DNA from: an uncultured delta proteobacterium
GTDB taxonomy: Bacteria > Desulfobacterota > Binatia > UBA9968
Reading direction: 5' to 3'
Assembly: GCA_963745035.1 (NCBI GenBank)
Contig: CAVUVW010000013.1
Location: 608,001-672,000, forward strand
Length of the DNA: 64,000 bases
The position numbers and the translations under genes are program-made. The notes under the pieces were generated by a model. The model saw only the letters and a list, made by a program, of their open reading frames with translations. It did no database searches and had not been told where the DNA came from. This document shows, in pieces, positions 2,641 through 49,076 of this stretch (positions are counted from its first letter, which is position 1; each line of letters starts with the position of its first letter).

Positions 2641-5600
2641 TTAGAAAACGCGAGACAGGCTGACCAGAGAATTTAGAGGCTCGCTGGTTTCGCTATCGAG
2701 CGCTCGGATGTCTTGGACGCATACAGGCGGCGCCCCGTTGTTGTTCAGCTCAACCTCACGTAAACATTCATTGAGACATTCGGCAACATCCCTGATATGT
2801 CCCTCGTGAAACATAGTTAAATGATCGCCGGGGACTTCGTGAATTTCCAATCCGCCGGTAAACATTCCCGTCCAACCACGGGTCGGATCATCGTCATAGC
2901 CCGCCTTCGGCTCTCGAGAACGCAATAGAACGCCGCGGCCTGTGTGTATTTCCGCGGCATGGTTCCGAAATGCAAAATCATAAGCCCAGGTCAGATTTGA
3001 AGCTGTCACGGCGACCGGAGTGCCGAGGAAAAAAGACCTATGGAAAATGCTCCACCAAATGCGTCGGAGCGGCAGAGATGCGAAGCTCGACGCTCTTTTA
3101 ATTGCAAAAGCGGCATACCTTAGCCGTCCCTGTAACCTTGGTTTTTTAAACGCCCTCCAGTGAGCCCGTAACCGTTGGAAAAGCGCGAGACTTCTTGACC
3201 GCGGGCCGTACGTGTCGAGCAAGGCGAGCAAGCCGATTTTTTCGCCCTCAGAATGGAGCAGTTGCGCCATCTCGAATGCAATCGTACCTCCGGATGAATA
3301 CCCGATAAGATGATAGGGTCCCTTTGGCTGAACCGTGCGAATGGCCTGAACGTAATTTGTCGCCATTTCTTTCAGAGTAACCGGCATAATCTCTTTTTCA
3401 AACATTCCCGAGAACGAAAGTCCATAGACGGGATATTGGGCATCGAGGTAGGAGACAAAGCCATATTCCACGCCAATGGTAAACACGGGCGGCTTGGATC
3501 CAGCGGATCTAACTTCAACCAGGCAGTTTCTTGGCGGAATCCAGCCCTCCGCGCGAATGACGTCCGCAAGTCGTTCGACCGTGGGAGCAGAAAAGATCGC
3601 GGTAATTGGAAGATCCACTCCTAAATGTCGCTTGATTTCCGCAACTACCCTGACTGTATTCAGTGAGTGCCCGCCCAACCCGAAGAAATTGTCCATTACA
3701 CTTACGCGACGGACATTTAAGACAGACTGCCAAATCTGGGCGAGTTGAAATTCGAGCCGATCACGGGGCGCGACAAAAGTCTTCGGCGAATCGCACTCGT
3801 CCGGACCGGGCAGCGGCAGCGCCTGGCGATTCACCTTGCCGCCGGGAGCGACAGGCAAGCCTTCAAGGAAAACAAACGCTGAAGGCACCATATAATCCGG
3901 GAGTTTTCGCGCAAGAAAGTTTCGCAGCTCACCGCGATCGCAGGCGACATTCGGATGAGTGACCAGATAGGCAACGAGCCGCATATCTTCCGGCGCGTAC
4001 TCCCTTCCGATCACAAGCACCTGCCTCACGTCCGGGTGCTCCATCAGATTTGCTTCGATTTCTCCCGGTTCGATTCGATGTCCGCGAATCTTTAGCTGCT
4101 GATCAATTCTCCCCAGGCATTCTATCGTTCCGTCGCCGAGGTGCCTGGCCCAATCCCCAGTCTTGAACAATCTTTCTCCGGAATCGCCGCTGTACGGATT
4201 CGGAACAAATCTTTGAGTCGTCAGCTCCGGACGTTTCAGGTAGCCCCGCGCAACCCCGTGTCCGCCGATACAAAGCTCGCCCGGTATACCCACCGGAACC
4301 GGCTGCATGTTGGCGTCGACGATATAGACCTGCGTATTGGCGATCGGTACCCCGATGGATATGACCCCGCAGTTCGCTGCGACTTGGCCGGCCGTGGACC
4401 ATACCGTCGTTTCCGTCGGCCCATAGAGATTCCAAACCGTGTTGCCGCCCTCGAGCAAGCTGTTGGCGAGATCTAAACTCAATGATTCGCCGCCACATAA
4501 CACTTTGAACCCTTTCGTACCTTTCCAGCCGGCCTCCACGAGCATCCGCCACGTTGTGGGTGTCGCCTGCATCATCGTCGCGCCCGAGGATTCGATCTGC
4601 CGCGCGAGCCTGCTGCCGTCGGCCGCCGCTTCTCTGGTGGTGACCACAACCCGTGCGCCGACACTCAGAGGCAGAAAAATCTCGAGCGCCGCGATATCGA
4701 AGGATATGGTGGTCACGGATAGCAAGACATCCGTCTCCGATATGCCGGGATTGTTCCTCATGGAATGGAGAAAATTGGCGAGCGAGCGATGTTCGATCTC
4801 GACGCCCTTGGGCTTGCCGGTCGATCCCGACGTGTAGATGACGTAGGCGAGCGAGCTCGGAGGCGGTGCGAGGTAGCTTTCTGCGGACTCGGAACTTACC
4901 GCGCTTGCCAGGCTGTCCAAGCAGAGCGTGAGTTGCCCATTGTCCGGCAAGCGTTCTAAAAGCCTTTCCTGGGTGAGCAGGATCCGCAGCCCGCTGTCCT
5001 CGAGCATAAATTGAATCCGCTCCTGAGGATAGCCGGGATCGATGGGCACATAAGCCCCGCCCGCCTTGAGCACTCCCAAAAGACCGGCAATGAGCTCGAT
5101 CGATCGCTCCGTGCACAAACCTACGAGAACACCGGGTTTGACCCCCATCGCTCGCAACCGGCAAGCGATTTGGTCGGTGCGCCGATTGAGTTCAGCGTAC
5201 GTGAGCTGCTGCTCTCCAAACACAACCGCGATGGAGTCCGGAGTTCTCCGCGCCTGCTCCTCGAATAATTCATGGACGCACTTTTGCGGAAACGCCGAGC
5301 CGGTGCTGTTCCACTGGCGCAGTAGCTGATTTTTCTCGCCCTCGGACAATATCGGAATTGTGGCAATCGAGTCGTTCGGATTCCCCGCCACGGCCTCGAG
5401 CAGCCGGTGATAGTGCCGCAGCATGCGCTTGACGGTCTCCGGCTTATAGAGGTCGGTGTTATAACTGATCAGGATCTTGCGCGTTACTTGCGGATCGACG
5501 GTGACGCCGATATCGAATTGCGACGCCGATTGATCGATCTCGAACGGCATCCAGGAGAGACCCTGCAAGTCGATCTTCTCCGCGGAGATGCTTTGAAAAT

Positions 5601-8600
5601 TGAAGAGCACCTGGATGAGCGGCGAGCGGCTCGGATCGCGACCAGACTCCATTTCCTTGACGACCGTTTCGAACGGCACATCGCCGTGGTCAAAGGCATC
5701 GAGCACAGTGTCACGCATTCGTCTTAGAACACGCCGAAAAGAGAGATCGCCCGAAAAGTCCGTGCGCAGCACCAGAATATTGATGAAGGTTCCAATCACA
5801 CTTTCCCATTCGAGCCGGTTTCGATTGGCAACAGGGGTGCCGATGCCAATGTCCCGTTGTCCCGAATACCGATGCAGCAGCGCCTTAAACGCGGCCAGAA
5901 AGAGCATGTATAACGTCGCATTCTCCTGCGCGGCTTGCTTCCTCAGATTTTCTACCAACTCGGCGGAGAGAGTCAGCGACTCGTAGCTTCCTCGGAAGGT
6001 TTGGATCGACGGCCGGGGATAATCCGTGGGGAGAGCCAGAGGTTGTAGGCCGGCGAGTTGCTTCTTCCAGTAGGCCAGTTGAGCATCTATCCGCCTTCCC
6101 GTGAGCCACTGATCTTGCCACATCGTGAAATCCCCGTACTGCGTCTGTGTTCCGTTCACGGCCAACGAGGACGATTCACAAAATCCGTTATAGAGCGAAC
6201 TCAGCTCGCGCGCGATAACGCCCAAAGACCATTGATCGGAAATCACGTGGTGCATATTCAGGAGCAAGACGTGGTCTTCTTCGGACAGGTGAAGCAATAA
6301 CACTCGTATTAAAGCGCCGTTTTCGAGGTCAAACGGACGACGCGCCTCGTCGCTCAAGAGTTGCTTTGCCGCGCTCAAACGATCCCCTTCGGGCATATTC
6401 CCAAGATCGATTTCCGGCATGTCCAACGTCAGCGTCGGCGAGATGGTCTGAACCGGCTCCCCTCCCCTGCTTGTGAAATTTGCTCGCAGGGATTCATGCC
6501 GCCGGATCAATTCCTCCAAGCTCCGATTCAGCGTTTCTTTGCGGAGCTGCCCGGCAAAACGGATGGGCACGGCGATATTGTACGCTGCGCTTTGCGGCGC
6601 GAGCTGATGCATGTACCAAATGCGCGCTTGCGATTGTGAAACGGGCGCTTCGTTTCCGCGCGACGAAAATGAAATGGGAGCTATCTCGGCGGCCGGCTCC
6701 TTCGACTGCAATGCCTCGTCGACACGCTCGGCAAACTGCGCCAAAACCGGCGCTTCAAAGATCACTCGCAGGGGAATCTCGATGGCCCATTCTTTACGAA
6801 CTCGAGACACGAGTTGAGCGGCAAGCAGAGACTGCCCGCCAAGTTCAAAAAAATGATCGCGCCTGCTTACGGCGTCCACGCCCAACAGCCGCATCCATAG
6901 ATCTGCGATGCGAATTTCCGTCGACGTCTCCGGAGCCTCGATCGGTCGGCCCGCCAAAGCCGAACACTTATCCGGATTGGGCAAAGCACGGCGGTCCACC
7001 TTGCCGCCGTGGGTTCGAGGCAAGGAATCCAGCGCCAGAATCGTCGTCGGCACCATGTATTCAGGGAGCTTCTTATTTACAAAATTCTTCACTTCCGTCA
7101 CGTTCAGCATGGCGCCTTGCTTGGGCACGAGATAAGCTACCAGTTGGTGGCGGGCGGAGTCGCCGTTCTGTGTCACCGTTGCGTCCTGGACCAGTGGATG
7201 CGCTTTGAGAACGACTTCGATTCCGTCGAGCTCTACACGAAAGCCTCGTATTTTTACTTGCCGGTCGAATCTCCCGAGGTACTCGAGGTTGCCATCGTCC
7301 CGCCAGCGAACCAGATCCCCGGTTCTGAATAAGCGGGAATTGGCGTCTTCTGCAAAGGGGTTGCGAATGAATTTGTCGGCCGTCAATACCGGTTGTTTCA
7401 CGTATCCGCGAGCAACCCCCGCGCCGCCGATGTACAATTCTCCGGGGACTCCGGTCGGCACCGGCGCCAAACTCGAGTCCAGCACATACGTTTGCGCATG
7501 GGGCAGAGGCGCGCCGATGGGAACCTCTTGGGAAGCAGCCCTCTTTGTAGGATAGTCGGTCAAGTCATAGACGGTCGCAGTGACCGTGGTTTCGGTAGGT
7601 CCATAGGTGTTGAGTAATTTCAGCGTCGGTCTGACACACGACTGCCATAATGCGACTCGCTCGGCATTGGCTTTTTCCCCGCCGATGATGACCAGGCGTA
7701 CCGAACCGGGCACCGCCAGGTGATCTGCAAACATATCGGCCACGAGGTCATGCCAATAGGCAGTCGGCAGATCGAGGATGGTGACGCCGTAATCCGCGCA
7801 CCCATCGAGGAAGTTCTTGGCCGACTCCAGCATGGCGTCGGTTCGGAGAACAAGCGTGGCGCCGCGCATCAAACAAGGAAAAATCTCTTCCACCGAAGTG
7901 TCGAAGGCGGCGGAAGCGAACTGAAGGACCCGGTCCTCGTGAACTAGTCCAAACACCCGTGCTGCCTGAGCGGCAAAATTCATCAAATTCTTGTGCGTAA
8001 TCTCGACGCCCTTGGGAGCTCCGGTCGACCCGGACGTATAGATCACATACGCGAGATCATCTCCGGAAACTCCTGAGTCGATGTTCTCCACACTCTCGCC
8101 GCTGATCGCCGGCTCCGAGGGGTCCAGTGCAATCGCCTCGGGGCCGTCTAGCGGTATGCGGCTCAACAGCTGCCCATGCGTGAGCACTATCGAAGCTCCC
8201 GCATTCGTCAAAATGAATTTCACCCATTCTCTCGAATAGTCTGGATGAATCGGGACATAAGCCGCCCCTGCTTTGAGAATGCCCAACTGGCCGACAATCA
8301 TTTCCAGCGAGCGCTCGACATACAGCCCAACCAGCGTCTTCGGTCCGACCCCGCGTTTTCGTAAATGGTGTGCCACTTGATTGGCGCGACGATTCAACTC
8401 TCCGTAAGACAGCCGCTCGTCGTTGAACACGACGGCGACTGCATCGGGTCGCGTCTTGGCTTGCTCTTCGATCAAGTAGTGAATACAGCGCTCGTCGAGG
8501 GCTTCAGCTTTCGGCCTGCTCGTCTCCAGAATCTGCTTGACCTCCTCCGACGAGGTTAGGCTCAAAAGGGCCAGCGGGCGAGCCGGATCAGTCAGATACG

Positions 8601-9957
8601 CGTCCACGACGCGCGAAAAATGGGAAATCAATCGCTGGCAATCCTGTTCGGCGAACACATCCCGATGCAAATCGAAATCGACCGACAGGCTCGTTACCGA
8701 GCCGAAATCGCTGATCTGGATCGTCAGTGCATCGTCTCCATGTCCGTTGTGCACCCACTGTGGTAAAGCCGCCATGCCCGCAAAGTTCGAGAACGACCGG
8801 GTGTGATAGTTAAGGACGACGTCGTACAACCTCCTGAAATACGGGTTGGCAACCGCGCACTGACCGTGTCGGGCTGCCTTGAACACTTCTGTTTTGACCT
8901 TGCCGATGAACGAAACAAACGTTTCCTCGTCGGACACTTCCAAGCGGACCGGAAGAACTTCGGAGAAAAATCCGATCGTCTGTTTGAACTCTTTGGATCG
9001 GCGATTATGAAATGGGATGCCGATGGTATATGTCGACTGTCTATTGAGACAGTAAAGATAACCGACGAGAATCGCGGCGAAGGTTTCGAGGAGAAACGCC
9101 TCTTCCGACCCCGACTTCGAGGCCGCGGCCATCGATCTCAGCCTGCTCGTGCGCTCGGCACCAAGCTCCCAAGAGACGCGGCGAACCCGCGTTGTCGCCT
9201 TGGCGGGGGTTTTGCCGTAAAAATGAATCTGTTCTCCGCCCGCGACGAAGAATTGCTTCCAATACGCCTCCGCGCGCCGATGACGCGCGGATTCACGATG
9301 ACTTCTCTCGTGAGCGACATAGTCGGCATAGGAGAACAAGCTCACATACTCCGGGAGTTGCCCCTGAAGCGAGCGGCTGTAGAACTCAGCCATACGGTGG
9401 TAAATCAACTCGAAAGACCAGCCGTCGCAGATCATATGATGGACGTTCAAATACCAGATGAACTCACTTTCCGACAATTGGATCAGCGCCGAGTCGAATA
9501 GGCGCTCATGCCATTGAAAGGGAATCTGGCAGCGCTTGTGCATCCAGCTTTTTGCCGTCGTGTGAGGATCCGGCAGCGACGACAGATCAACGACGTTGAG
9601 CTCGCATGGCACGATCGGCACAACCTTCTGTGTCGGAATTCCGTCGCATTCCTTGAGGACAGTCCGAAGTGCGTCACTGGAATTGACCAGGGTTTGAAAA
9701 GCCCTGCCGAAGTGTACCGGGTCGACTTTGCCGCGGATGTTCAGAGCCACGGCCAAGTTATAAATCGGTATCTCGGGAAGCAGGTCTTGCCCCATCCAGA
9801 CCTGCAACTGATTACTTGTCAGGTTCGATTGCTCGTATGCGCTCGTTGTTAGAGTCGCCTCACCGCCCGCAACTCCGCCGTTTCCGGTCACGCTGTGCAG
9901 GAGTCTCTCATTTTTCAGCGACTCGCTTTGCGGCTCAATCACGGATGTGCGGAGCAT
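2641..9957 (-). CDS. Two-module non-ribosomal peptide synthetase, C-A-T-C-A-T-TE
   Basis: C motifs HHMICDG and HHVISDQ; A cores YTSGSTGAPKG and YTSGSTGKPKG, NxYGPTE; carrier motifs FFELGGQS and FFGLGGHS; TE motifs GYSSGG and GDH. Confidence 0.96.
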   Translation of the reverse strand: MLRTSVIEPQSESLKNERLLHSVTGNGGVAGGEATLTTSAYEQSNLTSNQLQVWMGQDLLPEIPIYNLAVALNIRGKVDPVHFGRAFQTLVNSSDALRTVLKECDGIPTQKVVPIVPCELNVVDLSSLPDPHTTAKSWMHKRCQIPFQWHERLFDSALIQLSESEFIWYLNVHHMICDGWSFELIYHRMAEFYSRSLQGQLPEYVSLFSYADYVAHERSHRESARHRRAEAYWKQFFVAGGEQIHFYGKTPAKATTRVRRVSWELGAERTSRLRSMAAASKSGSEEAFLLETFAAILVGYLYCLNRQSTYTIGIPFHNRRSKEFKQTIGFFSEVLPVRLEVSDEETFVSFIGKVKTEVFKAARHGQCAVANPYFRRLYDVVLNYHTRSFSNFAGMAALPQWVHNGHGDDALTIQISDFGSVTSLSVDFDLHRDVFAEQDCQRLISHFSRVVDAYLTDPARPLALLSLTSSEEVKQILETSRPKAEALDERCIHYLIEEQAKTRPDAVAVVFNDERLSYGELNRRANQVAHHLRKRGVGPKTLVGLYVERSLEMIVGQLGILKAGAAYVPIHPDYSREWVKFILTNAGASIVLTHGQLLSRIPLDGPEAIALDPSEPAISGESVENIDSGVSGDDLAYVIYTSGSTGAPKGVEITHKNLMNFAAQAARVFGLVHEDRVLQFASAAFDTSVEEIFPCLMRGATLVLRTDAMLESAKNFLDGCADYGVTILDLPTAYWHDLVADMFADHLAVPGSVRLVIIGGEKANAERVALWQSCVRPTLKLLNTYGPTETTVTATVYDLTDYPTKRAASQEVPIGAPLPHAQTYVLDSSLAPVPTGVPGELYIGGAGVARGYVKQPVLTADKFIRNPFAEDANSRLFRTGDLVRWRDDGNLEYLGRFDRQVKIRGFRVELDGIEVVLKAHPLVQDATVTQNGDSARHQLVAYLVPKQGAMLNVTEVKNFVNKKLPEYMVPTTILALDSLPRTHGGKVDRRALPNPDKCSALAGRPIEAPETSTEIRIADLWMRLLGVDAVSRRDHFFELGGQSLLAAQLVSRVRKEWAIEIPLRVIFEAPVLAQFAERVDEALQSKEPAAEIAPISFSSRGNEAPVSQSQARIWYMHQLAPQSAAYNIAVPIRFAGQLRKETLNRSLEELIRRHESLRANFTSRGGEPVQTISPTLTLDMPEIDLGNMPEGDRLSAAKQLLSDEARRPFDLENGALIRVLLLHLSEEDHVLLLNMHHVISDQWSLGVIARELSSLYNGFCESSSLAVNGTQTQYGDFTMWQDQWLTGRRIDAQLAYWKKQLAGLQPLALPTDYPRPSIQTFRGSYESLTLSAELVENLRKQAAQENATLYMLFLAAFKALLHRYSGQRDIGIGTPVANRNRLEWESVIGTFINILVLRTDFSGDLSFRRVLRRMRDTVLDAFDHGDVPFETVVKEMESGRDPSRSPLIQVLFNFQSISAEKIDLQGLSWMPFEIDQSASQFDIGVTVDPQVTRKILISYNTDLYKPETVKRMLRHYHRLLEAVAGNPNDSIATIPILSEGEKNQLLRQWNSTGSAFPQKCVHELFEEQARRTPDSIAVVFGEQQLTYAELNRRTDQIACRLRAMGVKPGVLVGLCTERSIELIAGLLGVLKAGGAYVPIDPGYPQERIQFMLEDSGLRILLTQERLLERLPDNGQLTLCLDSLASAVSSESAESYLAPPPSSLAYVIYTSGSTGKPKGVEIEHRSLANFLHSMRNNPGISETDVLLSVTTISFDIAALEIFLPLSVGARVVVTTREAAADGSRLARQIESSGATMMQATPTTWRMLVEAGWKGTKGFKVLCGGESLSLDLANSLLEGGNTVWNLYGPTETTVWSTAGQVAANCGVISIGVPIANTQVYIVDANMQPVPVGIPGELCIGGHGVARGYLKRPELTTQRFVPNPYSGDSGERLFKTGDWARHLGDGTIECLGRIDQQLKIRGHRIEPGEIEANLMEHPDVRQVLVIGREYAPEDMRLVAYLVTHPNVACDRGELRNFLARKLPDYMVPSAFVFLEGLPVAPGGKVNRQALPLPGPDECDSPKTFVAPRDRLEFQLAQIWQSVLNVRRVSVMDNFFGLGGHSLNTVRVVAEIKRHLGVDLPITAIFSAPTVERLADVIRAEGWIPPRNCLVEVRSAGSKPPVFTIGVEYGFVSYLDAQYPVYGLSFSGMFEKEIMPVTLKEMATNYVQAIRTVQPKGPYHLIGYSSGGTIAFEMAQLLHSEGEKIGLLALLDTYGPRSRSLALFQRLRAHWRAFKKPRLQGRLRYAAFAIKRASSFASLPLRRIWWSIFHRSFFLGTPVAVTASNLTWAYDFAFRNHAAEIHTGRGVLLRSREPKAGYDDDPTRGWTGMFTGGLEIHEVPGDHLTMFHEGHIRDVAECLNECLREVELNNNGAPPVCVQDIRALDSETSEPLNSLVSLSRVF

Positions 9958-10001: not shown

Positions 10002-11816
10002 TCAACGATACCTTTGCGCTTGGGTTTCATACATCCGGGCATAAATCCGGCTTTCCCTCATGAGCTCTTGATGCGTGCCGAATTCGGCTATCCTGCCGTG
10101 CTTGAGCACGTAAATACGATCGGCCATTTTGACCGTCGAGAGCCGGTGACTGATGAGAATGGCCATCTTACCTTTGACCAGTTGGTGAAACCGCTCGAAA
10201 ACTTCGTACTCCGCCTCCGCATCAAGAGAACTGCTCGGCTCGTCCAATACGATAATGTCACCATCATGTAAGAAAGCGCGCGCGAGGGCGATCTTCTGCC
10301 ATTCTCCCGTGCTCAATTCGTGGCCTCCGTCAAATGACTTGCCCAAAAGCGTATCGTATCCGTCGGTTAGTTGCGCAATCAGCGGATCAACGCCGGCTTT
10401 ACGCGCGGCGGGGTCGAGGTGTTGGCCGTCGGGTGGAACATTGACATTTCCCAACCAGATATTTTCGCGAGCCGTCAGCTCGTAGCGAGGATAGTCTTGA
10501 AAAACAACACTGATGCTGCGTCGCAGATCTTGAGTCGCGTAGTGGCGCAGATCCACCCCGTCCAGGGTGATAGCCCCGCTCGTAGGATCGTAAAGCCGGC
10601 AAAGGAGCTTGGCCAACGTGGTTTTTCCCGCGCCATTCTCTCCGACCAGCGCCACGTGCTCGCCGGGTCGAATGGTCAAAACAATATCTTCCAGGACTCG
10701 ATGGCCATCCCCCGGGTACTGAAAACCAACATGGTCAAAGACGATACCGGACCGAAAGGGTTTCCTGATGACGCTCGGATTTGACGGCTCTTCCAGCTTT
10801 GGTTTGAGATCGAGAAACTTGTAAAGATTGCCGAGGAAGAGATTGTCTTCATAGAGGTCGGCAACGCTGTTAAATACCTGCCGAAGCAAAGCTTGGCCGC
10901 GCTGCACTGCGGCATAAAACATGACCAGATCCCCGAGGCTCATGAGCCCTTGTACGGCGCGCAGCCCGAGATAGCCCAGAAGGGCGAAAGACACGCAGAT
11001 GGCGGCGCTGATGGTGAGTAGTTCCGCAAACGCTTTTTTTGTGGCGATGCGCACCTTCTCGCGTCGCAGTTGGGAACGCAGCCGGCGAAATCGATCCATG
11101 AACAAAGAGCCCACGCCGAAGAGCCGAATTTCTTTGGCATACGCGTCGTTCGTAAGGATCCCATTTAAGTATGCCGCCTGCCGTTCCACGGGAGTTCTGT
11201 GGCGTTCCCATTGATAGTTTTTTCTAGCGTAGCGAATGCGCACGAACACGGCGGGAATGGCGGCGGCCAGAAGCACGAATCCTACAACCCAGTGAAGCCA
11301 AACCAGCAAGATGCCTAACGCAATCACCGAGATGGAATTTTGCGCAAGTTGCCGCAAATTGTTCAGCACCCGGACGGGCCGGACCGGGGCCTCTTGCTGC
11401 GCACGGTGAAGGGTATCGTGATATTGCGGGCTTTCGTAATATTCGAGGTCCACCTCGGTGGACTTAACGTGCAAGATGTCGTACATGCGGTCCGTCAAGA
11501 CGTTCCCATGAACAAAGCTGATGATCCTATCCACCGAGCTGAATATGGCTTCCAGTAACGTCGCCACACCGAGAAGGACGATAAATATGGTAACTGACTG
11601 GAAACCCGAGATACCGTCAGGACCAAGGGCTCCTTGCAGCGAGTCCACTGCCATTTTTACCAGATACAGCGTCAGTAACGGCAGCACACCCTGGACAGCG
11701 ACAACAACGATGCTGGCAAGGCTCCATCGGGGACCGCTATGCCAGATAAAGTGCAGGTAGCGGAACAGGTTGGAACTCAGGTCCGATTTGGTTTTTCCTG
11801 GCATCATCGCAATCAA
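10002..11816 (-). CDS. ABC exporter, fused permease/ATP-binding protein
   Basis: N-terminal TM helices; Walker A GENGAGKTT, signature LSTGEWQK, Walker B IIVLDEP, H-loop ISHRL. Confidence 0.93.
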   Translation of the reverse strand: MIAMMPGKTKSDLSSNLFRYLHFIWHSGPRWSLASIVVVAVQGVLPLLTLYLVKMAVDSLQGALGPDGISGFQSVTIFIVLLGVATLLEAIFSSVDRIISFVHGNVLTDRMYDILHVKSTEVDLEYYESPQYHDTLHRAQQEAPVRPVRVLNNLRQLAQNSISVIALGILLVWLHWVVGFVLLAAAIPAVFVRIRYARKNYQWERHRTPVERQAAYLNGILTNDAYAKEIRLFGVGSLFMDRFRRLRSQLRREKVRIATKKAFAELLTISAAICVSFALLGYLGLRAVQGLMSLGDLVMFYAAVQRGQALLRQVFNSVADLYEDNLFLGNLYKFLDLKPKLEEPSNPSVIRKPFRSGIVFDHVGFQYPGDGHRVLEDIVLTIRPGEHVALVGENGAGKTTLAKLLCRLYDPTSGAITLDGVDLRHYATQDLRRSISVVFQDYPRYELTARENIWLGNVNVPPDGQHLDPAARKAGVDPLIAQLTDGYDTLLGKSFDGGHELSTGEWQKIALARAFLHDGDIIVLDEPSSSLDAEAEYEVFERFHQLVKGKMAILISHRLSTVKMADRIYVLKHGRIAEFGTHQELMRESRIYARMYETQAQRYR

Positions 11817-11904
11817 ATGTGCGCAAACATGACCGTGCGACTTCTCCGCCGGTCAATCGCTAAAAACTGCAATTAACCAGAGGAAACGCATCATGGACGT
11901 CACG

Positions 11905-11920
11905 AGCAACCACAATGCCA
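11905..11920 (-). promoter_or_regulatory. Sigma-54 (-24/-12) promoter of the ABC-NRPS-epimerase operon
   Basis: Minus strand reads TGGCAT-TGTGG-TTGCT, matching TGGCAY-N5-TTGCW about 90 nt upstream of the ABC start. Confidence 0.8.
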
Positions 11921-12011
11921 ATAGTAAAGAAATTCCCCGACACTTGATCCAAGTTGCAGCAGTAGCCGGGTTCAGCGTGCCAACGCCTTCTGTCAATGTT
12001 AAAATTCGTTG

Positions 12012-12024
12012 TAAGTATTTGAAA
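12012..12024. promoter_or_regulatory. Putative IHF site upstream of the sigma-54 promoter
   Basis: TAAGTATTTGAAA, one mismatch to YAANNNNTTGATW, lying between the promoter and the palindrome at 12170-12183. Confidence 0.4.
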
Positions 12025-12332
12025 GGCTGGGGATTTGCGGGCAGGGGTCAAGTGAAGCCCTTGGGCGGGCAAGGCGGGAGCTGTTGGCAGGCTAGCAATC
12101 TGTATCTTTCCAAAACGCGCACAGGCGCGTTCAGTCGCGCTGAATCCTCGGGAATTGTCACGCAGGTCGCGTCAGAGTTGACGTAGGGGCCGAAATAAGC
12201 CAACTCTCTACGCCTTTTTCGTCTCGAGGATCTACCTAGGGCTTGGATTTTTCGGGCCTGGATGGCCGGGCGGGCCAAAGGAATCACGTAAGCGGGCGAC
12301 TTTGGGTGGTTTTCCCGCCGTTCGCCGCTTTG

Positions 12333-13479
12333 CTAACAACTCGCAACCTCCTGATAGAGACTGCCCAGTTGCGATGCGCAATGCCGAACATTGAAGGATT
12401 TGTCGATTTGGTCCCGCAGCGCCGACCCGTCGGTCAGCAACCGATCAGGCTCCTCAAAGTACATTTGCAGACGGTCGGCTATTGCGACCGGATCCCGCTC
12501 GGCAACGAGCCATTTTGCGTGAGCACCGAACAGATAAGGGATATCGGCGTGGACGGTAGAGATCACCGGCATACCCGTTGCCATCATTTGCTGCAACACA
12601 AACGGCGTTCCTTCACGATCGCCATCGGCGGCGGTAACGCTGGGCGCCACAAAAACATGGCAACTCAGCGCCAAGTCACAGAGCTCGCTAAACGGCATGA
12701 ACGGGTAGTGGGTGACGACATCCTCGATGCCCACCCGCCGAATGCTGCTAAACACCGCCTCTTTCGTTTCGCGGTCGCCCGATTTGCCCATTGCGTCGCC
12801 GACAAGCTTCACCTCGAGCTTCACCCCCGCCTTGCGCGCGCGAGCGGCCGCTTCGACAACGTACTGCACGCCTTTTTTCTCGCGAAAGGTCCCGGCAAAA
12901 AGTATCTTCAATGGCTCGCCTGGCCGCAGCGTTCGTGGAGCGGCCGTTAACTGCTCTACATCCACTCCCAACGGATGCACCACGATTTTTTCCGGCGGAC
13001 ATCCCAGCTCTTTGATCTCAGCCGCCATCAGCTGGTCCTAGGGCGAGAATGCGCTCGGCTTGTCGAAAGACCGTCTCGTATTTTTTTGCGCGTTCAGCCC
13101 GGCCACGCTGAAAGATGTCGGCACCGTAAAAGCTCACGATCCACGGCGTCCCGAGAGCTTGATGCATCCGGCAATCCTGCCTCGCTACCGAGCCGAAATG
13201 CGAGTGCAGTACTCGCGGCGCCAATTTTTTGATGCGGTGCCATTCCGTCGGATAATAGCGGGCACCGGAAATCCGCCGCCACGCGCGCCGTGTCAAACTC
13301 AAATTGAACTTCCAGGCGATCAACTCGGGAAATTCCTCGCGGTTCATCAACGCGTCGCACAGAACCACGGGAGTGAAACGCGGCAATGACCGTAAATGAT
13401 CGTACAACCAATTCATCGTTCGGGCGACGAAGCGGTCGCAGCGTTGTAAAGCAATGGGGGCGGCGGCAGTGGCGTTCAT
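12333..13479 (-). pseudogene. GT4 glycosyltransferase (WcaL-like), split by a +1 frameshift near 13029 as sequenced
   Basis: ORF 13018-13479 is the N-half (HSHFG, VSFYGAD). ORF 12333-13028 is the C-half (FAGTFREKKG, PSVTAADGDREGTP). Removing one base joins LALGPA to MAAEIKELGC. Confidence 0.8.
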
Positions 13480-42780: not shown

Positions 42781-42836
42781 GCACCTTCCGGGGGTCTGTG
42801 ATTCGCTTTTAGACGGAATCGCACACACTTGGGAGG

Positions 42837-44390
42837 GTGCCGATGACTTTGTTGAGCTACGCATTCAAGCGTCTGGTATTTTTCACATCATCGATTGTTT
42901 TCATAGGTTTCCTGCACGCGACGGCCGACGCCGCCTCGATTAGGCTGCTGTGGGCGGATCTATCGAGCAACGAAGACGGGTTCAGGATCGAACGCAAGCC
43001 GTCCGGCGGCAACTATGCGACGCTCGCCACCGTGGGCGCGAACGTGCAATCGTACACGGACGCCAACGCGACCGCGGGCGTGAGTTACTGTTACGTCGTA
43101 CGCTCATTTAATACCGGCGGGGTATCCGCTCCTTCAAATAGCGCGTGCGGCACGGCGCCGGCTTCCACGTCCGGCGACCCAGTCGCCAGCGGCTCGGGCT
43201 CCACGGACGGAACCGGCAGCACGGACGGTTCCAGTACCGGCGGTTCCAGCGCGCCGACAATTGCAGTTGGATCGTATAGCGGCAGCAAATGGAAAGATTA
43301 CAGCGTCAGTCTGACGATGAAATCCGCGGACAACGATTCGATCGGAGTCATGTTCCGTTACCTCGACAACGACAATTACTACCGGTTCTCGTGGCATAAC
43401 GAAACAAAAACGCAGCAGCTCGTAAAGCGCGAGAACGGCGCCTTCAAGGTTCTGGCGAAACGCACGGCGACTTACACCTCAGGAAGAAGCTATTCCCTGG
43501 CGATCAGCGCAAACGGTTCGCAGCTCAAGGTCGCGGTCGACGGCGCGACGATCTTCACCGTTACGGACACGAGCTTCGCCGACGGTACGATCGGCTTATA
43601 CTCCTCTTCCAATCAAGGCAGCTCTTTTGATAACGTCAAGGTCATCGATTTGAGCACGGAGAAAACTTTGCTCACCGAAGATTTCAGCGACGGAAACTTC
43701 GTCGGCTGGAGTATCATCGACGACCCGGCAGCAAAGAACGGCCCATCCCTTTGGTCCGTCTCCAGCGGAGTCTTGCTTCAGAAGAGCAATATCGGTTCCG
43801 GAACCAGCGACGCCCTCGGCACCTACGCCTTATTTACCCGAGGCAGTTGGACGGACTATCGCTTCAGCGTAAAGATAAAATCGACCGACAATGATTCTAT
43901 TGGCGTCATGTTTCGCTACCAGGACGATCGCAACTACTATCGATTCGTTTGGGATCCCCAGGAAAAATCCCGGCGCCTGGAAAAGCGCGTAAACGGCGTT
44001 TTCACTTCCATTGCTCACGACACAGTCCCTTACGTCACCGGCCAGACGTATCAGATCGAGATCGGCGCGAACAAAGCCGCATTACAGGTTCTGGTCAACG
44101 GCGCTTCGGTCTTCGCGGTCAACGATTCCACTTTCAGCGGAGGCACGGTCGCCCTGTACTCCAGGTTCAACAGCACAAGCATCTTCGATGACGTCATGGT
44201 TCAGGATCTATTAACGAAGACGGTCTTGCTATGGGATGATTTCAATGACGGAAATCTTCACGCCTGGACGATCATTGATGACGATGGCACCCGATCCGGC
44301 CCTTCCGAATGGTCGGTGTCCAACGGCGCGCTGGTGGAAACCAGCAACATCGGCTCCGATAGTCAACTAGGCACTTTCGCAGTATACTAG
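42837..44390 (+). CDS. Secreted protein: FN3-like domain, Gly/Ser linker and two tandem lectin/concanavalin-like (DUF1080-like) repeats
   Basis: Signal peptide ending near ATADA; LLWADLSSNEDGFRIERK...YTD...YCYVVRSFN FN3 pattern; repeated WxDY...DNDSIGVMFRY...NYYRF...FDxVxV; GGGAGG RBS. Confidence 0.85.
   Translation: MPMTLLSYAFKRLVFFTSSIVFIGFLHATADAASIRLLWADLSSNEDGFRIERKPSGGNYATLATVGANVQSYTDANATAGVSYCYVVRSFNTGGVSAPSNSACGTAPASTSGDPVASGSGSTDGTGSTDGSSTGGSSAPTIAVGSYSGSKWKDYSVSLTMKSADNDSIGVMFRYLDNDNYYRFSWHNETKTQQLVKRENGAFKVLAKRTATYTSGRSYSLAISANGSQLKVAVDGATIFTVTDTSFADGTIGLYSSSNQGSSFDNVKVIDLSTEKTLLTEDFSDGNFVGWSIIDDPAAKNGPSLWSVSSGVLLQKSNIGSGTSDALGTYALFTRGSWTDYRFSVKIKSTDNDSIGVMFRYQDDRNYYRFVWDPQEKSRRLEKRVNGVFTSIAHDTVPYVTGQTYQIEIGANKAALQVLVNGASVFAVNDSTFSGGTVALYSRFNSTSIFDDVMVQDLLTKTVLLWDDFNDGNLHAWTIIDDDGTRSGPSEWSVSNGALVETSNIGSDSQLGTFAVY
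43290..44387 (+). repeat. Intragenic tandem duplication, period 558 nt (186 aa)
   Basis: WKDY begins at 43290 and WTDY at 43848. Both units contain DNDSIGVMFRY, DFxDGN, GPSxWSVS, SNIGS and LGTxA. Confidence 0.9.
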
Positions 44391-44435
44391 AAATCAGGCG
44401 TAAGGAACTGACATCGCGAACAATCAGGAGTAGAA

Positions 44436-45740
44436 ATGAACCCTCAGTTAAAAATGGCCGTCATGTCCGGCGCGCTTTTCCTTGGCTTCCTTATTGCCGA
44501 CTCAAGCATCGCGGCAACCTACCATGTGAAAAAGTCCGGCAACGATTCCTATAGTTGCACCCAGGCGCAAAGCGCCTCGACACCCAAGCTGACAATTAGT
44601 TCCGCTCTTAACTGCATCGGTACAGGAGCAGGTGCAGGCGCAAACCATACTGTTCGGGTCTACGCCGGCACCTACGCCGAAACCATCAACAACAACTTGC
44701 CCGGCGGCACTTCATGGAACGATCCATTCACACTTGAGAGTAATCCCGGTGATGTTGTCAGCATACGACCGTCCGGATCTTGTATCATAACTATCGACCT
44801 TCGCCGATCAACGACTCAGTATGCAATTATTCAAGGCCATGGTGACGCTAAAATGGTAGTAGACGCCACGAACTGCAGTAATAACGCTATAAAGATCACT
44901 AAGTCTACTTCACACGGAACAGCGCATCACGTTCGGCTTAAAGAGTTGGAGGTTAGGAATGCGCCTAATCACGGTATTCAAATAACATCTGATTCTGCTT
45001 TTAATGAACAGATCAACTTGTGGGTGCACCATAACGGCTCTTCGGCAAACGTTGACGATACCCACGGAACTTACGTTGGCGGGCCGGACAATCTGATCGA
45101 AGGCGGACTTTACGAGTACAACTACCATAGAGGTATTCAGATCCGAGCGGGTACTAAAACTGCGCACCGCAATATCATCCGCCGAACAATTATTAGAAAT
45201 AATGGCAGAGCTCCCGGAGGGGGAGGAAACGTCGTACTCGCCGCGGGCGATGACATCCAGTTTTATAACAATATCGTTTATGGAGCTACCATTCACGGAG
45301 TGTCTGTTACCTGTTCAGGTGGTTGTCCTTCCCGAACAAAAATCTACAACAATACAATCTTTAAGAATGGGCAATATGCGATCAACTTACACGGTGTGAG
45401 CCAAACTGAGATCAAAAATAATATCTTTTGGCAAAATGGATCAGATACGGTCGCCCTCGGGCCCAGTATTGGCACAACGCAATCGAATAATTTAACCTCA
45501 GACCCAAAATTTGCCGATGTGACCAAGTATAATTTTCGCTTGGTGTCAGGCAGCCCAGCTATCGACAAAGGAGCGACCATTTCGGCAGTTAAAAACGACT
45601 TTGATGGCCGGCCGCGGCCACAAGGAGCAAGTTTTGATATTGGAGCTTTCGAATTTAATGCGACCTCGGGTGGTAGCCAGCCAATTCCGTCAGCGACTCC
45701 GCCGGCGGCTCCCGGTCAGTTAACGACAGTGACTCAGTGA
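44436..45740 (+). CDS. Secreted right-handed parallel beta-helix (pectin-lyase-like) protein
   Basis: Signal peptide, ATYHV, AGTYAE, Asn-ladder repeats (YNNIVY, YNNTIF, KNNIFW) and SPAIDKG...DFDGRPRPQG...DIGAFE tail; AGGAG RBS. Confidence 0.88.
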   Translation: MNPQLKMAVMSGALFLGFLIADSSIAATYHVKKSGNDSYSCTQAQSASTPKLTISSALNCIGTGAGAGANHTVRVYAGTYAETINNNLPGGTSWNDPFTLESNPGDVVSIRPSGSCIITIDLRRSTTQYAIIQGHGDAKMVVDATNCSNNAIKITKSTSHGTAHHVRLKELEVRNAPNHGIQITSDSAFNEQINLWVHHNGSSANVDDTHGTYVGGPDNLIEGGLYEYNYHRGIQIRAGTKTAHRNIIRRTIIRNNGRAPGGGGNVVLAAGDDIQFYNNIVYGATIHGVSVTCSGGCPSRTKIYNNTIFKNGQYAINLHGVSQTEIKNNIFWQNGSDTVALGPSIGTTQSNNLTSDPKFADVTKYNFRLVSGSPAIDKGATISAVKNDFDGRPRPQGASFDIGAFEFNATSGGSQPIPSATPPAAPGQLTTVTQ

Positions 45741-46965
45741 GCTTGCAGTGTGATTTGAAAACTTCAGCAAGGCGCTGTCCGTTTTTCCACATATCGAAAC
45801 TCTGTTCGGCGTAGTTGCGAGCCTGCCGGGCATAAGAAATTCTGCGGCCTTCATCGGTCAACAACGATTCTATAGCATCAGCTAACGCAGTTACATTTTT
45901 CGGCGGTACCAGGACTCCGCGTTTGCCGTTGCCCAGCAGTTCGGGAATCCCAGCAACGGTCGAACCGAGCACCGTCGTGCCCACTGCCATCGATTCTTTG
46001 ATCACGTTCGGGACGCCGTCCCCCAGATCCGGAGAGGGATGAACCAAAAGCATCGCTTGACTGATCGCCGCCGGAACCTGGTCAGCCGGAAGCCAACCGC
46101 GAAATCTAATTTGGTCGACGATATCGAGATCGTGTGCTAAAGACCGGAGCAACTCTGCTTGCTCGCCGTCGCCGACCAGATCAACGGTGACGTTAACACC
46201 GCGAGTCTTAAGCAAACCAACCGCTCGTAACAGATAGTCGAAACCTTTTTGCTCGACGAAGCGGCCCACGGCGATAATTGTTCCCGGCGTTCGATCATCG
46301 AGCCCCATTGGCACCGTCCCGAAATCCAGCCCGTGATGGTGTACGAATATCTTCTCCTTAATTACTTCCTGAACATCAGAAAACCTCTCCGCAATAAAAT
46401 TGCGGTTGAACTCGCTACAGGTGATGATCTGGTCGGCGTACAGCATTTTGCACTTCATGAAAATCGGCCTTCGGTACAAATCGACGTTTGCATGCAGAAA
46501 AAGTGAGAAGGGATTCGAGACTCCGGACAATCGATGATACAGGTACGCGCACGTGGCGGGATAATTACCCCAATATGCCAGGACACGATCGTAATTGTTC
46601 GGGTACATTTGCGCCCACGCCCACGCCTTTAGGAACACGTAACTACTCTTCGCTAACGGTTGCAGTCCGTATTGGAGCGCGGATGCGCTGATCGAAAACG
46701 TGTCCGCCAAAAATTGCGTCAGCTTTTTGGGTGGCCAGGAATAGAAACCCCTGATGCAATCGCGCATCGAGAGATGGTGCACCTTACTGGGGGGCAATAC
46801 CTTCTCGTTGAGGAGCTCGGGAACATACTTCCACAGGCTCGAGTCCAGGGGATAGATCGGAAATACCTCGACGTCGATCCCGGCGTCGATCAATCCGCGG
46901 ATATCCCGGGCGAAAAACGTGGCTGTGCGGCCGGGGAACTGATTGGTAAAAACAGCGAGTCGCAT
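45655..46965 (-). CDS. GT4 glycosyltransferase
   Basis: AVGRFVEQKG and HPSPDLGDGVPNVIKESMAVG motifs. The 3' end overlaps the convergent beta-helix gene by 86 nt. Confidence 0.9.
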   Translation of the reverse strand: MRLAVFTNQFPGRTATFFARDIRGLIDAGIDVEVFPIYPLDSSLWKYVPELLNEKVLPPSKVHHLSMRDCIRGFYSWPPKKLTQFLADTFSISASALQYGLQPLAKSSYVFLKAWAWAQMYPNNYDRVLAYWGNYPATCAYLYHRLSGVSNPFSLFLHANVDLYRRPIFMKCKMLYADQIITCSEFNRNFIAERFSDVQEVIKEKIFVHHHGLDFGTVPMGLDDRTPGTIIAVGRFVEQKGFDYLLRAVGLLKTRGVNVTVDLVGDGEQAELLRSLAHDLDIVDQIRFRGWLPADQVPAAISQAMLLVHPSPDLGDGVPNVIKESMAVGTTVLGSTVAGIPELLGNGKRGVLVPPKNVTALADAIESLLTDEGRRISYARQARNYAEQSFDMWKNGQRLAEVFKSHCKLTESLSLTDREPPAESLTELAGYHPRSH

Positions 46966-47962: not shown

Positions 47963-49076
47963 TTAATTGAAGCGTTGCCAGCCCGCGGCGCGATAGGCTT
48001 CGAACGTATAATCGAGCAAACGAGTCAAACCAAACTCTTTTTCTGCCTTCGCGCGTGCCGCCTCTCCCATGCGCCGGCACAGCGCATGGTCGCCGGCCAG
48101 CCTTGCGATACGCTCGGCAAAGGACTCGGCGTCGTTGCCGTCAACGATGAATCCGGTTTTGCCTTCGTCAACGAGCGCGGGAATGTCGCCGGCCTGCATC
48201 GCCACGACGGGACGGCCGCACGCCATGGCTTCCATCACGACGTTGGGACAGCCTTCATTTTCAGAGGTGTGCGCCAGGATCGCAGCCTGAGACAGCAGAG
48301 CTGGGATTTCTTCCCTGCGGCCGGCGAACTCTACACGATCGGTCACGCCGAGATCCCTTGCCTGCGTCTCCAGCCGCTCTCGGAGCGGGCCGTCGCCGAC
48401 GAGTTGCACAAGAAATTCGATGTTTCTTTGCTTCAGCAAAGAAGCCGCCCGCAGCAAGCGATCCCAGCGTTTCACGGGCGACAGCGATCCGATACCGATA
48501 ATTTTCAGAAGTCTTTGATCCACCGGCGGCAGTGTACTTGAACTGTTCGGTATCGATGCCGTTGCGCACCACAAAGACATGCCTCGGGACAAAATAATTA
48601 TCCGTCTGGCGAGCGCTTTCAGCGGCGGCGAAACTGTTGAAGATCTGATGGCGCGGCCACCGCGCGCACACTCTGCCCAAAGAGCCGTACTCCGATCGTG
48701 AGCGGTGAAAATCACTTCTCACCGAGCCCACCGGAATAGACTTGGTGCCGATGGCGGCATACCAGGCCGCCAGATTGGTATAAAAGCTGTAAGAATGAAC
48801 CACCTCGGGATTGAGCCTGCGAAGGAGCTTGCGCAGTACCGCCATTTTTTTGATTCTTGAGCTCCCTCCGCTGAGGCCGTGAAGAGGCACGCCCAGGGCG
48901 CGAATGCGCGAGACATACTTTTCATCTTCACGAAAGTGCCAAACCAACACCTGCGGTTTGTGGCGTTCTCGATCCATAGTCTCGAGGAGATAGCAGAGTT
49001 GCCGCTCCAAACCGCCGTCGCGTAGTTGACCCACGACGTAAAGAAGGCGGCAGTCCGCCGGGCTCGTGGATTGCAA
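47963..49076 (-). pseudogene. GT4 glycosyltransferase, split by a +1 frameshift near 48536 as sequenced
   Basis: N-half has GGLERQL and VRNGID. C-half has IGSLSPVKRW, VGDGPLR and EGCPNVVMEAMACG. Confidence 0.8.

Follow-up and report, generated by a model that had tools for sequence, protein, structure and literature searches.

A candidate split FN3 docking pair: a lectin-like secreted protein whose FN3 domain lacks strand A, and a beta-helix neighbour ending in a strand-A-like tail

P1 and P2 are two adjacent plus-strand genes lying within a long run of minus-strand polysaccharide genes in a 64,000-nucleotide stretch of contig CAVUVW010000013.1, from an uncultured delta proteobacterium; that whole stretch is referred to here as the window. 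P1 encodes a secreted protein in which a fibronectin type III (FN3) domain begins at strand B, and P2 a secreted beta-helix protein whose C-terminus resembles the strand A that P1 lacks. The subject of this report is the proposal that the P2 tail (the plug) completes the P1 domain (the socket) by donor-strand docking. The positions and sequences on which the original prediction of such docking was built were found in the DNA as it had given them. The features of the two genes are as follows.

42831..42836, plus strand: Shine-Dalgarno-like GGGAGG of P1, 6 nucleotides (nt) before ATG 42843; read directly
42843..42932, plus strand: P1 signal peptide, ending HATADA at an AxA signal-peptidase-I-type site; cleavage site predicted from the -3/-1 rule
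42933..43157, plus strand: P1 FN3 domain without strand A (strands B to G), the proposed socket; Pfam, AlphaFold2 (AF2), register against 2330 domains
43170..43283, plus strand: P1 linker rich in Ser, Gly, Thr and Asp, including the lead-in to APTIAV; modelled as disordered
43299..44207, plus strand: two concanavalin-like 3keto-disac_hyd/DUF1080 domains of P1, like a lectin or carbohydrate-binding module (CBM); Pfam, Foldseek
44223..44387, plus strand: P1 C-terminal segment, ending GT..LY; repeats the N-terminal lectin-domain part that lectin domain 1 lacks
44426..44430, plus strand: P2 ribosome-binding site AGGAG, 5 nt before the P2 ATG
44436..44513, plus strand: P2 signal peptide, ending SSIA before ATYHV; AF2 helix at residues 3-20; cleavage site predicted
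44514..45665, plus strand: P2 right-handed beta-helix body, like a polysaccharide lyase (PL) or epimerase; PF13229, NF041518, AF2, Foldseek
45666..45698, plus strand: P2 flexible Ser/Pro-rich linker; predicted local distance difference test score (pLDDT) about 50, no secondary structure
45699..45737, plus strand: P2 strand-A-like C-terminal tail PPAAPGQLTTVTQ, the proposed plug; sequence, conservation, matrix score, register

The P1 and P2 proteins

The P1 open reading frame (ORF) extends to 44390 from either GTG 42837 or ATG 42843. The ATG is the likelier start because it lies 6 nt downstream of GGGAGG, which the listed GTG overlaps. The -3/-1 rule for signal peptidase cleavage is established knowledge, and codon 42933, directly after the P1 signal peptide (...HATADA), opens ASIRLLWADLSSNEDGFRIERK. 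When P1 was compared with the Pfam fn3 profile (PF00041), its residues 30-102 aligned with profile positions 11-80 of 84, and profile positions 1-10, corresponding to strand A, had no counterpart. The score of 21.9 bits is under the 25-bit gathering cut-off, which fits the absence of the first 10 profile positions; the socket domains of four other loci (L031, L033, L035 and L139) exceed that cut-off at 32.7-40 bits. Of the seven strands of an FN3 domain (A, B, C, C', E, F and G), the AF2 model of P1 contains six (residues 33-36, 46-53, 59-65, 70-73, 81-90 and 100-104) at pLDDT 78-86; the Trp is present and strand A is absent. The P1 domain is an FN3 domain minus strand A, and the claim that mature P1 begins at strand B was borne out by both the Pfam positions and the register described below.

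Residues 110-147 of the 515-residue AF2 model of P1 have pLDDT <50. The APTIAV segment was considered as a source of P1's own strand A, an outcome that would have told against docking, and was ruled out: the linker is disordered and the strand-A motif is not conserved there. The lectin part matches PF06439 in two stretches at 64.2 bits against a cut-off of 26.8, and Foldseek searches with it returned tandem galectins, laminin LG pairs, CBM66 and BT3469. The C-terminal ending of P1 is shared by 105 of the 120 P1 homologs listed (see below), and the AF2 strands are confident in this segment. The lectin repeats (43299-44387) are offset, in that DUF1080 domain 1 lacks its N-terminal ~60 residues (LLxDDFxDG...GTxAL) and P1 closes with one further copy of that segment alone. 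The lectin part resembles a domain that is circularly permuted or complemented within its own chain, the C-terminal segment probably packing onto lectin domain 1.

The P2 ORF (44436..45740, with the TGA stop at 45738-45740) follows P1 after a gap of 45 nt. Its product scored 37.1 bits with PF13229, for which the cut-off is 25.9, and was modelled at pLDDT 91.9 with the beta-helix body above 90. The top Foldseek match was Pel9A (1ru4; expect value (E) 4.7e-11, TM 0.62/0.67), followed by AlgE4, PL6 lyases and AlgG, so that on its modelled structure P2 is a PL9-like beta-helix protein and a putative enzyme. A choice-of-anchor Q domain (NCBIfam NF041518) occupies residues 366-408 (45531-45659; 50.5 bits, cut-off 25). 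Beyond it residues 411-434, about 24 residues of which the last 13 are PPAAPGQLTTVTQ, have pLDDT 50-53 and no secondary structure in the monomer model. Packing of the tail on the P2 body was ruled out by that model, in which the tail is free, and read-through beyond the P2 stop into a further FN3 domain was ruled out by the downstream DNA, which is a glycosyltransferase gene in antisense. A 418-residue metagenome homolog (P0004) is near-identical to P2 over the first ~107 residues and only ~51% identical overall, with the PAAPGxL tail kept in both; the two sequences look mosaic, as though the central beta-helix that sets specificity had been swapped.

Register and conservation of the two halves

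The strand-A consensus was taken from the 20 residues before strand B in 2330 complete FN3 domains of the same subtype, carried by 150 large proteins. These were the best 150 of 33127 matches (E<=0.001) to the 78-residue socket in a search of 1.84 billion representatives; the 150 listed are giant multi-FN3 proteins only, and N-terminal sockets were not separable among them. Upstream of strand B the consensus reads P(-15)-A-A-P(-12)-T-G/N-L(-9)-T-A-T-A-V-S-S-T, followed by Q-I-D-L-T-W. The P2 tail occupies consensus positions -16 to -4 and is then closed by the stop codon, and mature P1 starts at -1. Placed end to end, the P2 tail and mature P1 give one FN3 domain that is short of only two residues, in the A-B turn. 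Judged by sequence and register, the P2 tail is an FN3 strand A, and the description of P2 as ending, after a flexible linker, in an isolated strand of this kind held up. Asn precedes the anchor Leu in 55 of 106 tails, but it is common in ordinary FN3 strand A too.

A position matrix was built from P2-family tails. It replaced a loose regular expression that had matched 187 of 11920 ORFs, mostly of one solute-binding family. With the matrix, the P2 C-terminus ranks top among the 11920 ORFs of at least 150 codons in its own genome, at 14.5 bits compared with a 99.9th percentile of 6.3, a ranking that is partly circular because near-identical tails are in the training set. The complementarity of P1 and P2 was confirmed as real and far from chance. 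Contigs C2, C14, C17 and others of the same genome carry dozens of paralogs of ~330 residues ending ...TIPPNVLARADKVIR, many in tandem arrays, which look like an expanded solute-binding protein family.

On the P1 side, 238 homologs were found at E<=0.001 among 7999 candidates scored, and 120 of them were listed. An N-terminal FN3 domain is present in 99 of the 120 and missing from 21, and in none of the 99 does it have a strand A. The signal peptide leads straight into strand B in 86 of the 99 as scored by script and in ~4 more by eye; in 8 listed homologs the gene start is called inside or just before the FN3 domain. The socket is, as far as these sequences indicate, a family-wide feature defined by signal peptidase. 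In the window's own genome there are three proteins with an FN3 domain of the P1 subtype, each with that domain directly after the signal peptide. Two of them lie elsewhere, at G000:C25:105292-106668 (L196) and G000:C7:28407-30275 (L197), and begin their FN3 domain from strand B; one has Flg_new_2 repeats, the other shares its C-terminal domain with its neighbours, and neither has a tailed neighbour.

On the P2 side, 206 homologs were found at E<=0.001 among 8000 scored, and again 120 were listed. In 49 of the 120, at 30-54% identity, the protein ends in a linker, PxxPxx[LVIF]x[VIL], 2-7 further residues and the stop codon, which answers the objection, foreseen in the original prediction, that the tail might not be conserved in homologs. 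The remainder comprises 2 borderline cases, 24 proteins that stop within 8 residues after DIGAxE, 28 with long C-terminal extensions and 17 others or fragments. An independent simple motif finds the tail in 52 of the same 120. The beta-helix protein of L043 has an extra domain of ~150 residues inserted, and its C-terminus is still APPSPPGLLTVTSP followed by the stop. The tail is under selection.

Gene pairs, fusions and the docking proposal

The order socket gene first, plug gene next, on the same strand, was found in the window and in nine other loci (L043, L230, L232, L233, L246, L031, L033, L035 and L139), the socket gene preceding the plug gene in all ten adjacent pairs. The socket bodies in these pairs are DUF1080, H-type lectin or Flg_new_2, and the plug proteins are of the P2 family or unrelated to it. 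When approached from P2, five loci have a signal peptide, an FN3 domain from strand B and a binding module encoded directly upstream of the tailed beta-helix gene. L043, a metagenome contig with synteny to the window, has a P1 ortholog followed by the tailed beta-helix gene. L031, L033 and L035 belong to three genomes of the window's phylum; the socket proteins of L031 and L033 have an H-type lectin, and those of L033 and L035 have TSP3 repeats. L139 belongs to a metagenome-assembled genome (MAG) of Geobacteraceae, its socket protein having Flg_new_2 repeats.

When approached from P1, 79 loci with P1 homologs were fetched and their 918 ORFs of at least 150 codons were scored with the tail matrix. 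Only five tails reached 13.3 bits or more, the next best scoring 7.7, and all five lie downstream of socket genes. High-scoring tails therefore fall in 5 of the 18 loci with a socket and in none of the 61 without (one-sided Fisher p = 3.8e-4, a value that overstates the case, the loci not being independent and some sharing a MAG). In L230, L232, L233 and L246 the tailed gene comes immediately after the socket gene and encodes a secreted protein of ~470-484 residues; a Pfam scan of the tailed proteins of L230 and L233 gave no match. In L247, a Nitrospirales chromosome, the tailed ORF is two ORFs after two socket genes. There ORFs 3386-5395 and 6320-8800 are the consecutive sockets and 10267-12819 encodes an 850-residue protein with the best tail of all P1-side loci (21.7 bits) and no Pfam or NCBIfam match. 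L032 (G029) has an internal socket-like FN3 domain, in a lipoprotein (3073-4170) where it is C-terminal, after an Ig-like domain and with no room for strand A; the same locus encodes a second tailed protein (11897-13156, 22.1 bits) adjoining its tailed beta-helix protein.

Fused forms, in which the beta-helix is followed by a complete FN3 domain at the position of the tail, occur in L048, L192, L134, L157 and L185. In L237 the order is beta-helix, complete fn3, LamG, PKD and four DUF1080 domains, and in L249 a beta-helix is joined to two DUF1080 domains. Socket and plug are linked by neighbourhood and by fusion. Other P2 homologs continue after choice-of-anchor Q with Dockerin_1 (L074, L137 and L056) or with a type IX secretion system (T9SS) sorting domain (L180 and L154), so that the domain is followed in this family by a dockerin, a T9SS domain, a complete FN3 domain or the tail. 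Because the module here varies, the position is where an attachment device is placed in this family, the tail being one kind.

The tail might accordingly be a true anchoring or docking tag with a receptor other than the P1 FN3 domain, for instance part of the export machinery, or a surface or outer-membrane protein contacted through beta-augmentation, with the P1 neighbourhood reflecting a shared polysaccharide function only. We consider this unlikely. It suits the placing of the tail after a 'choice-of-anchor' domain, where homologs have a dockerin or T9SS domain, as well as the 25 of 30 well-flanked tailed genes that have no adjacent socket and the three sockets to one clear plug in the window's genome. 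It does not explain why the tail corresponds at every residue to an FN3 strand A that stops at the A-B turn, why the only high-scoring tails in the 79 P1-type loci adjoin socket genes, or why fused forms place a complete FN3 domain at the tail site, and an alternative receptor was indicated by no result in the analysis.

The fused forms would also fit a history in which a gene for a beta-helix, FN3 and lectin protein was split at the A/B boundary, leaving non-interacting remnants and an FN3 domain that serves as a stable spacer. In unfolding studies FN3 domains withstand the loss or the peeling away of strand A, and the P1 domain models fairly well without it. We nevertheless think such an evolutionary leftover quite unlikely, since neither the motif nor the exact distance from the stop codon would be preserved in a useless remnant across 49 of 120 listed homologs at 30-54% identity. 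The tail also stays C-terminal despite the domain insertion in L043 and is found on unrelated proteins beside socket genes, and the socket-to-plug gene order is the opposite of the fused order, which simple fission would not give.

Binding of the two parts was modelled, as the original prediction had proposed, with the P1 FN3 domain (8-row alignment) and P2 residues 403-434 (40-row alignment). Interface scores (ipSAE, interaction prediction score from aligned errors) of 0.55, 0.56 and 0.55 were obtained, compared with 0.02 for the best of three controls; partner pLDDT was 60-62 and contacts agreed to >=97% between runs. The verdict of the tool was weak support, and no geometry was given. When the tool was calibrated, 58 of 80 solved complexes passed, as did 2 of 110 mismatched pairs, and passes at <=0.60 comprised only 7 of the 80 solved complexes and both of the passing mismatches. 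The comparative evidence, namely conserved halves, a recurring pair and fusions, lends partial support to the donor-strand docking that had been suggested for P1 and P2.

We propose the following sequence of events. P1 and P2 would both be exported by Sec, and signal peptidase would leave the P1 FN3 domain starting at strand B, so that the B-strand edge and the part of the core normally covered by strand A would be open. P2, being PL9/alginate-epimerase-like, would act on the exopolysaccharide of the surrounding Wzx/Wzy-type cluster; it would present ~24 disordered residues at its end, the last 13 corresponding to FN3 strand A. This tail would lie on strand B of P1 and complete the sandwich by donor-strand complementation, and the P2 enzyme would thereby be tethered to the two concanavalin-like sugar-binding domains of P1. 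We give an even chance to P1 and P2 forming a secreted enzyme-lectin complex in this manner, through non-covalent docking of a split FN3 domain.

Several observations weigh against this proposal. Among 30 well-flanked tailed genes of the P2 family (at least 2.5 kb on both sides of the tailed gene), only 4, or 5 with L031 as judged by eye, have a socket within 5 kb, and in Nitrospira loci two tailed genes commonly occur without a socket close by. Three sockets stand against one clear plug in the window's genome, the weaker candidate plugs scoring 9.0 and 7.1 bits. Five genomes with tailed genes were read at 30 loci, with no control genomes: G401 and G405 have clear sockets, G404 has looser lipoprotein forms with a linker before strand B, and G402 and G403 show no clear socket among those loci. 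The P1 FN3 domain still models at pLDDT 78-86 without strand A and, strand A being an edge strand, may be stable alone. The prediction of the complex may also reflect mere familiarity of the model with the fold, by which a strand-A peptide would be put beside an FN3 domain. Lastly, the tail matrix was trained on the P2 family and is circular there, being independent only for the five tails on the P1 side.

The weaker tail-like C-termini in the window's genome (G000) belong to secreted proteins encoded at C14:581521-582258, C1:6095-7093 and C13:1944265-1945263. One scores 9.0 bits, and two belong to near-identical YNCE-like beta-propellers ending ..AAAPQRLQLR (7.1 bits).

The excess of sockets over plugs in that genome would make sense if the open FN3 edge served self-association of P1-type proteins, as sheets or fibres held edge to edge or by swapped strands, or contact with polysaccharide, the tail being unrelated. 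A conserved C-terminus of DPAxLR/FR type, found on the socket proteins of L031, L033 and L035, could in principle be their own donor strand. The tail matrix gives that C-terminus a score of about 0 or less, P1 itself closes with part of a lectin domain and not with a strand-A motif, and self-association leaves the tail's likeness to strand A and its socket neighbourhood unexplained; we regard it as very unlikely.

Slightly less than an even chance is given to the broader form of the docking proposal, in which a natural plug-and-socket is widespread: a C-terminal FN3 strand-A tag of 12 to 15 residues on many secreted enzymes would pair with a strand-A-less FN3 domain, laid bare by removal of the signal peptide, on many lectin or repeat proteins, reconstituting one FN3 domain and thereby building modular enzyme-lectin complexes in the exopolysaccharide matrix. 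MAGs with such genes include Nitrospirales/Nitrospira, Binatia, delta-proteobacterial/Geobacteraceae and Acidobacteriota among others, the window's phylum being represented too.

Known systems and the surrounding genes

In chaperone-usher pili an immunoglobulin-like sandwich missing one strand is completed by a strand of another polypeptide (PMC10903470). The pilus subunits lack the C-terminal G strand, an N-terminal extension acts as donor, a chaperone and an usher are required and the product is a homopolymer. In P1 the N-terminal edge strand A is missing, whereas the donor would be a C-terminal tail of P2 and the product an enzyme-lectin heterodimer. No gene for a PapD-like chaperone or an usher was found among the ten flanking genes scanned. 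In the type V pili of Bacteroidia (FimA/Mfa1 type) an N-terminal strand is removed by a processing protease and the groove is filled by the C-terminal strand of another subunit. Their pilins are lipoprotein precursors cut by an Arg-specific protease before they polymerise, whereas P1 has an ordinary AxA site and the FN3 fold, with no polymer implied; AxA sites are shared by P1 and its homologs, in which a lipobox Cys is absent.

TasA is a secreted matrix protein for which strand donation is described in the absence of a dedicated chaperone (PMC10903470), and archaeal threads and cannulae likewise use chaperone-free strand donation. TasA, threads and cannulae form homotypic filaments with N-terminal donor strands, whereas P1 and P2 would be a heterotypic tag and socket on modular enzymes. 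In the cohesin-dockerin pair of the cellulosome, too, many different enzymes carry a short C-terminal module that docks into a receptor module, borne by a protein with carbohydrate-binding domains. A dockerin, however, is a Ca-binding fold of ~60 residues that sits on the surface of a complete cohesin, and the 13-residue peptide of P2 would join the receptor fold itself; Dockerin_1 gave no match in a Pfam scan of P2. In the engineered SpyTag/SpyCatcher system, made from split CnaB2, a short strand peptide and the remainder of the domain reconstitute and are locked by an isopeptide bond. That system is man-made as well as isopeptide-locked, and in 8 aligned socket domains no Lys/Asp/Glu triad is apparent, the only invariant residues being W, G, Y, G and S.

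A comparable set of genes is found in Vibrio cholerae, where RbmB is a beta-helix lyase and the rbm genes lie in a polysaccharide cluster. The matrix proteins RbmA (FN3) and RbmC/Bap1 (lectin) of that organism bind exopolysaccharide (PMC10903470). RbmA has complete tandem FN3 domains, with no split domain or tail described, and the comparison with P1 and P2 shows no sequence relationship.

With the pili, TasA and archaeal threads P1 and P2 would share completion of an Ig-like fold in trans, and with cohesin-dockerin the use of a small tag and a receptor; they have the defining features of none of these families. No description of a split FN3 docking system was found in the literature searched, which had supplements and subscription journals outside its coverage; the original prediction had not recognised the arrangement as a described system, and no paper matching it came to light in that search. 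If docking does occur, it would be a new bacterial route to multi-subunit extracellular enzymes, its module being one split domain made up of a tag of 13 residues and a socket of 75. Docking would also account for beta-helix enzymes with an orphan 'PxAPxNLRV' stub and N-terminal FN3 domains starting at strand B, both of which are odd and very common in environmental genomes, and would predict enzyme-lectin partners in the biofilm matrix turnover of groups that are hard to culture. Such a module would do by strand complementation what cohesin-dockerin does and would be a natural parallel to the engineered split-domain tags; small natural pairs of peptide and domain, possibly orthogonal, might be gained from it for use in protein engineering. 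If the docking proposal is wrong, the conserved tail still marks an anchoring signal after the choice-of-anchor Q domain.

The genes flanking P1 and P2 include an initiating sugar transferase, glycosyltransferases of the GT2, GT1 and GT4 families, Wzy-like and Wzz/tyrosine-kinase-like proteins, a UDP-GlcNAc 2-epimerase and PGA_cap; two of the ten flanking genes scanned had no Pfam match. The nearest downstream gene converges on P2.

45655..46965, minus strand: convergent group-1 glycosyltransferase ORF, the last 86 nt of which overlap the linker- and tail-coding end of P2 (45655-45740)

The Pfam domain of this glycosyltransferase stops near residue 390 of 436, and in the syntenic locus L043 the counterparts of the glycosyltransferase and P2 do not overlap.

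Co-transcription of P1 and P2 is plausible from their arrangement. A promoter and terminator scan found no plus-strand terminator-like site between them, in a scan whose counts were at the level of shuffled sequence (4 compared with 2.8 +/- 1.8, and 7 compared with 5.0 +/- 2.0). Short contigs from four soil metatranscriptome libraries match within both P1 and P2 at 95-100%, DNA carry-over being possible. One such contig spans 44201-44429, that is the end of P1 and the gap, and none from the four libraries extends across the junction into P2 by 31 nt. Further downstream, at 47963-49076 on the minus strand, two overlapping ORFs of 271 and 250 codons jointly resemble a single 365-residue glycosyltransferase of L043, and may represent a frameshift, a pseudogene or an assembly error.

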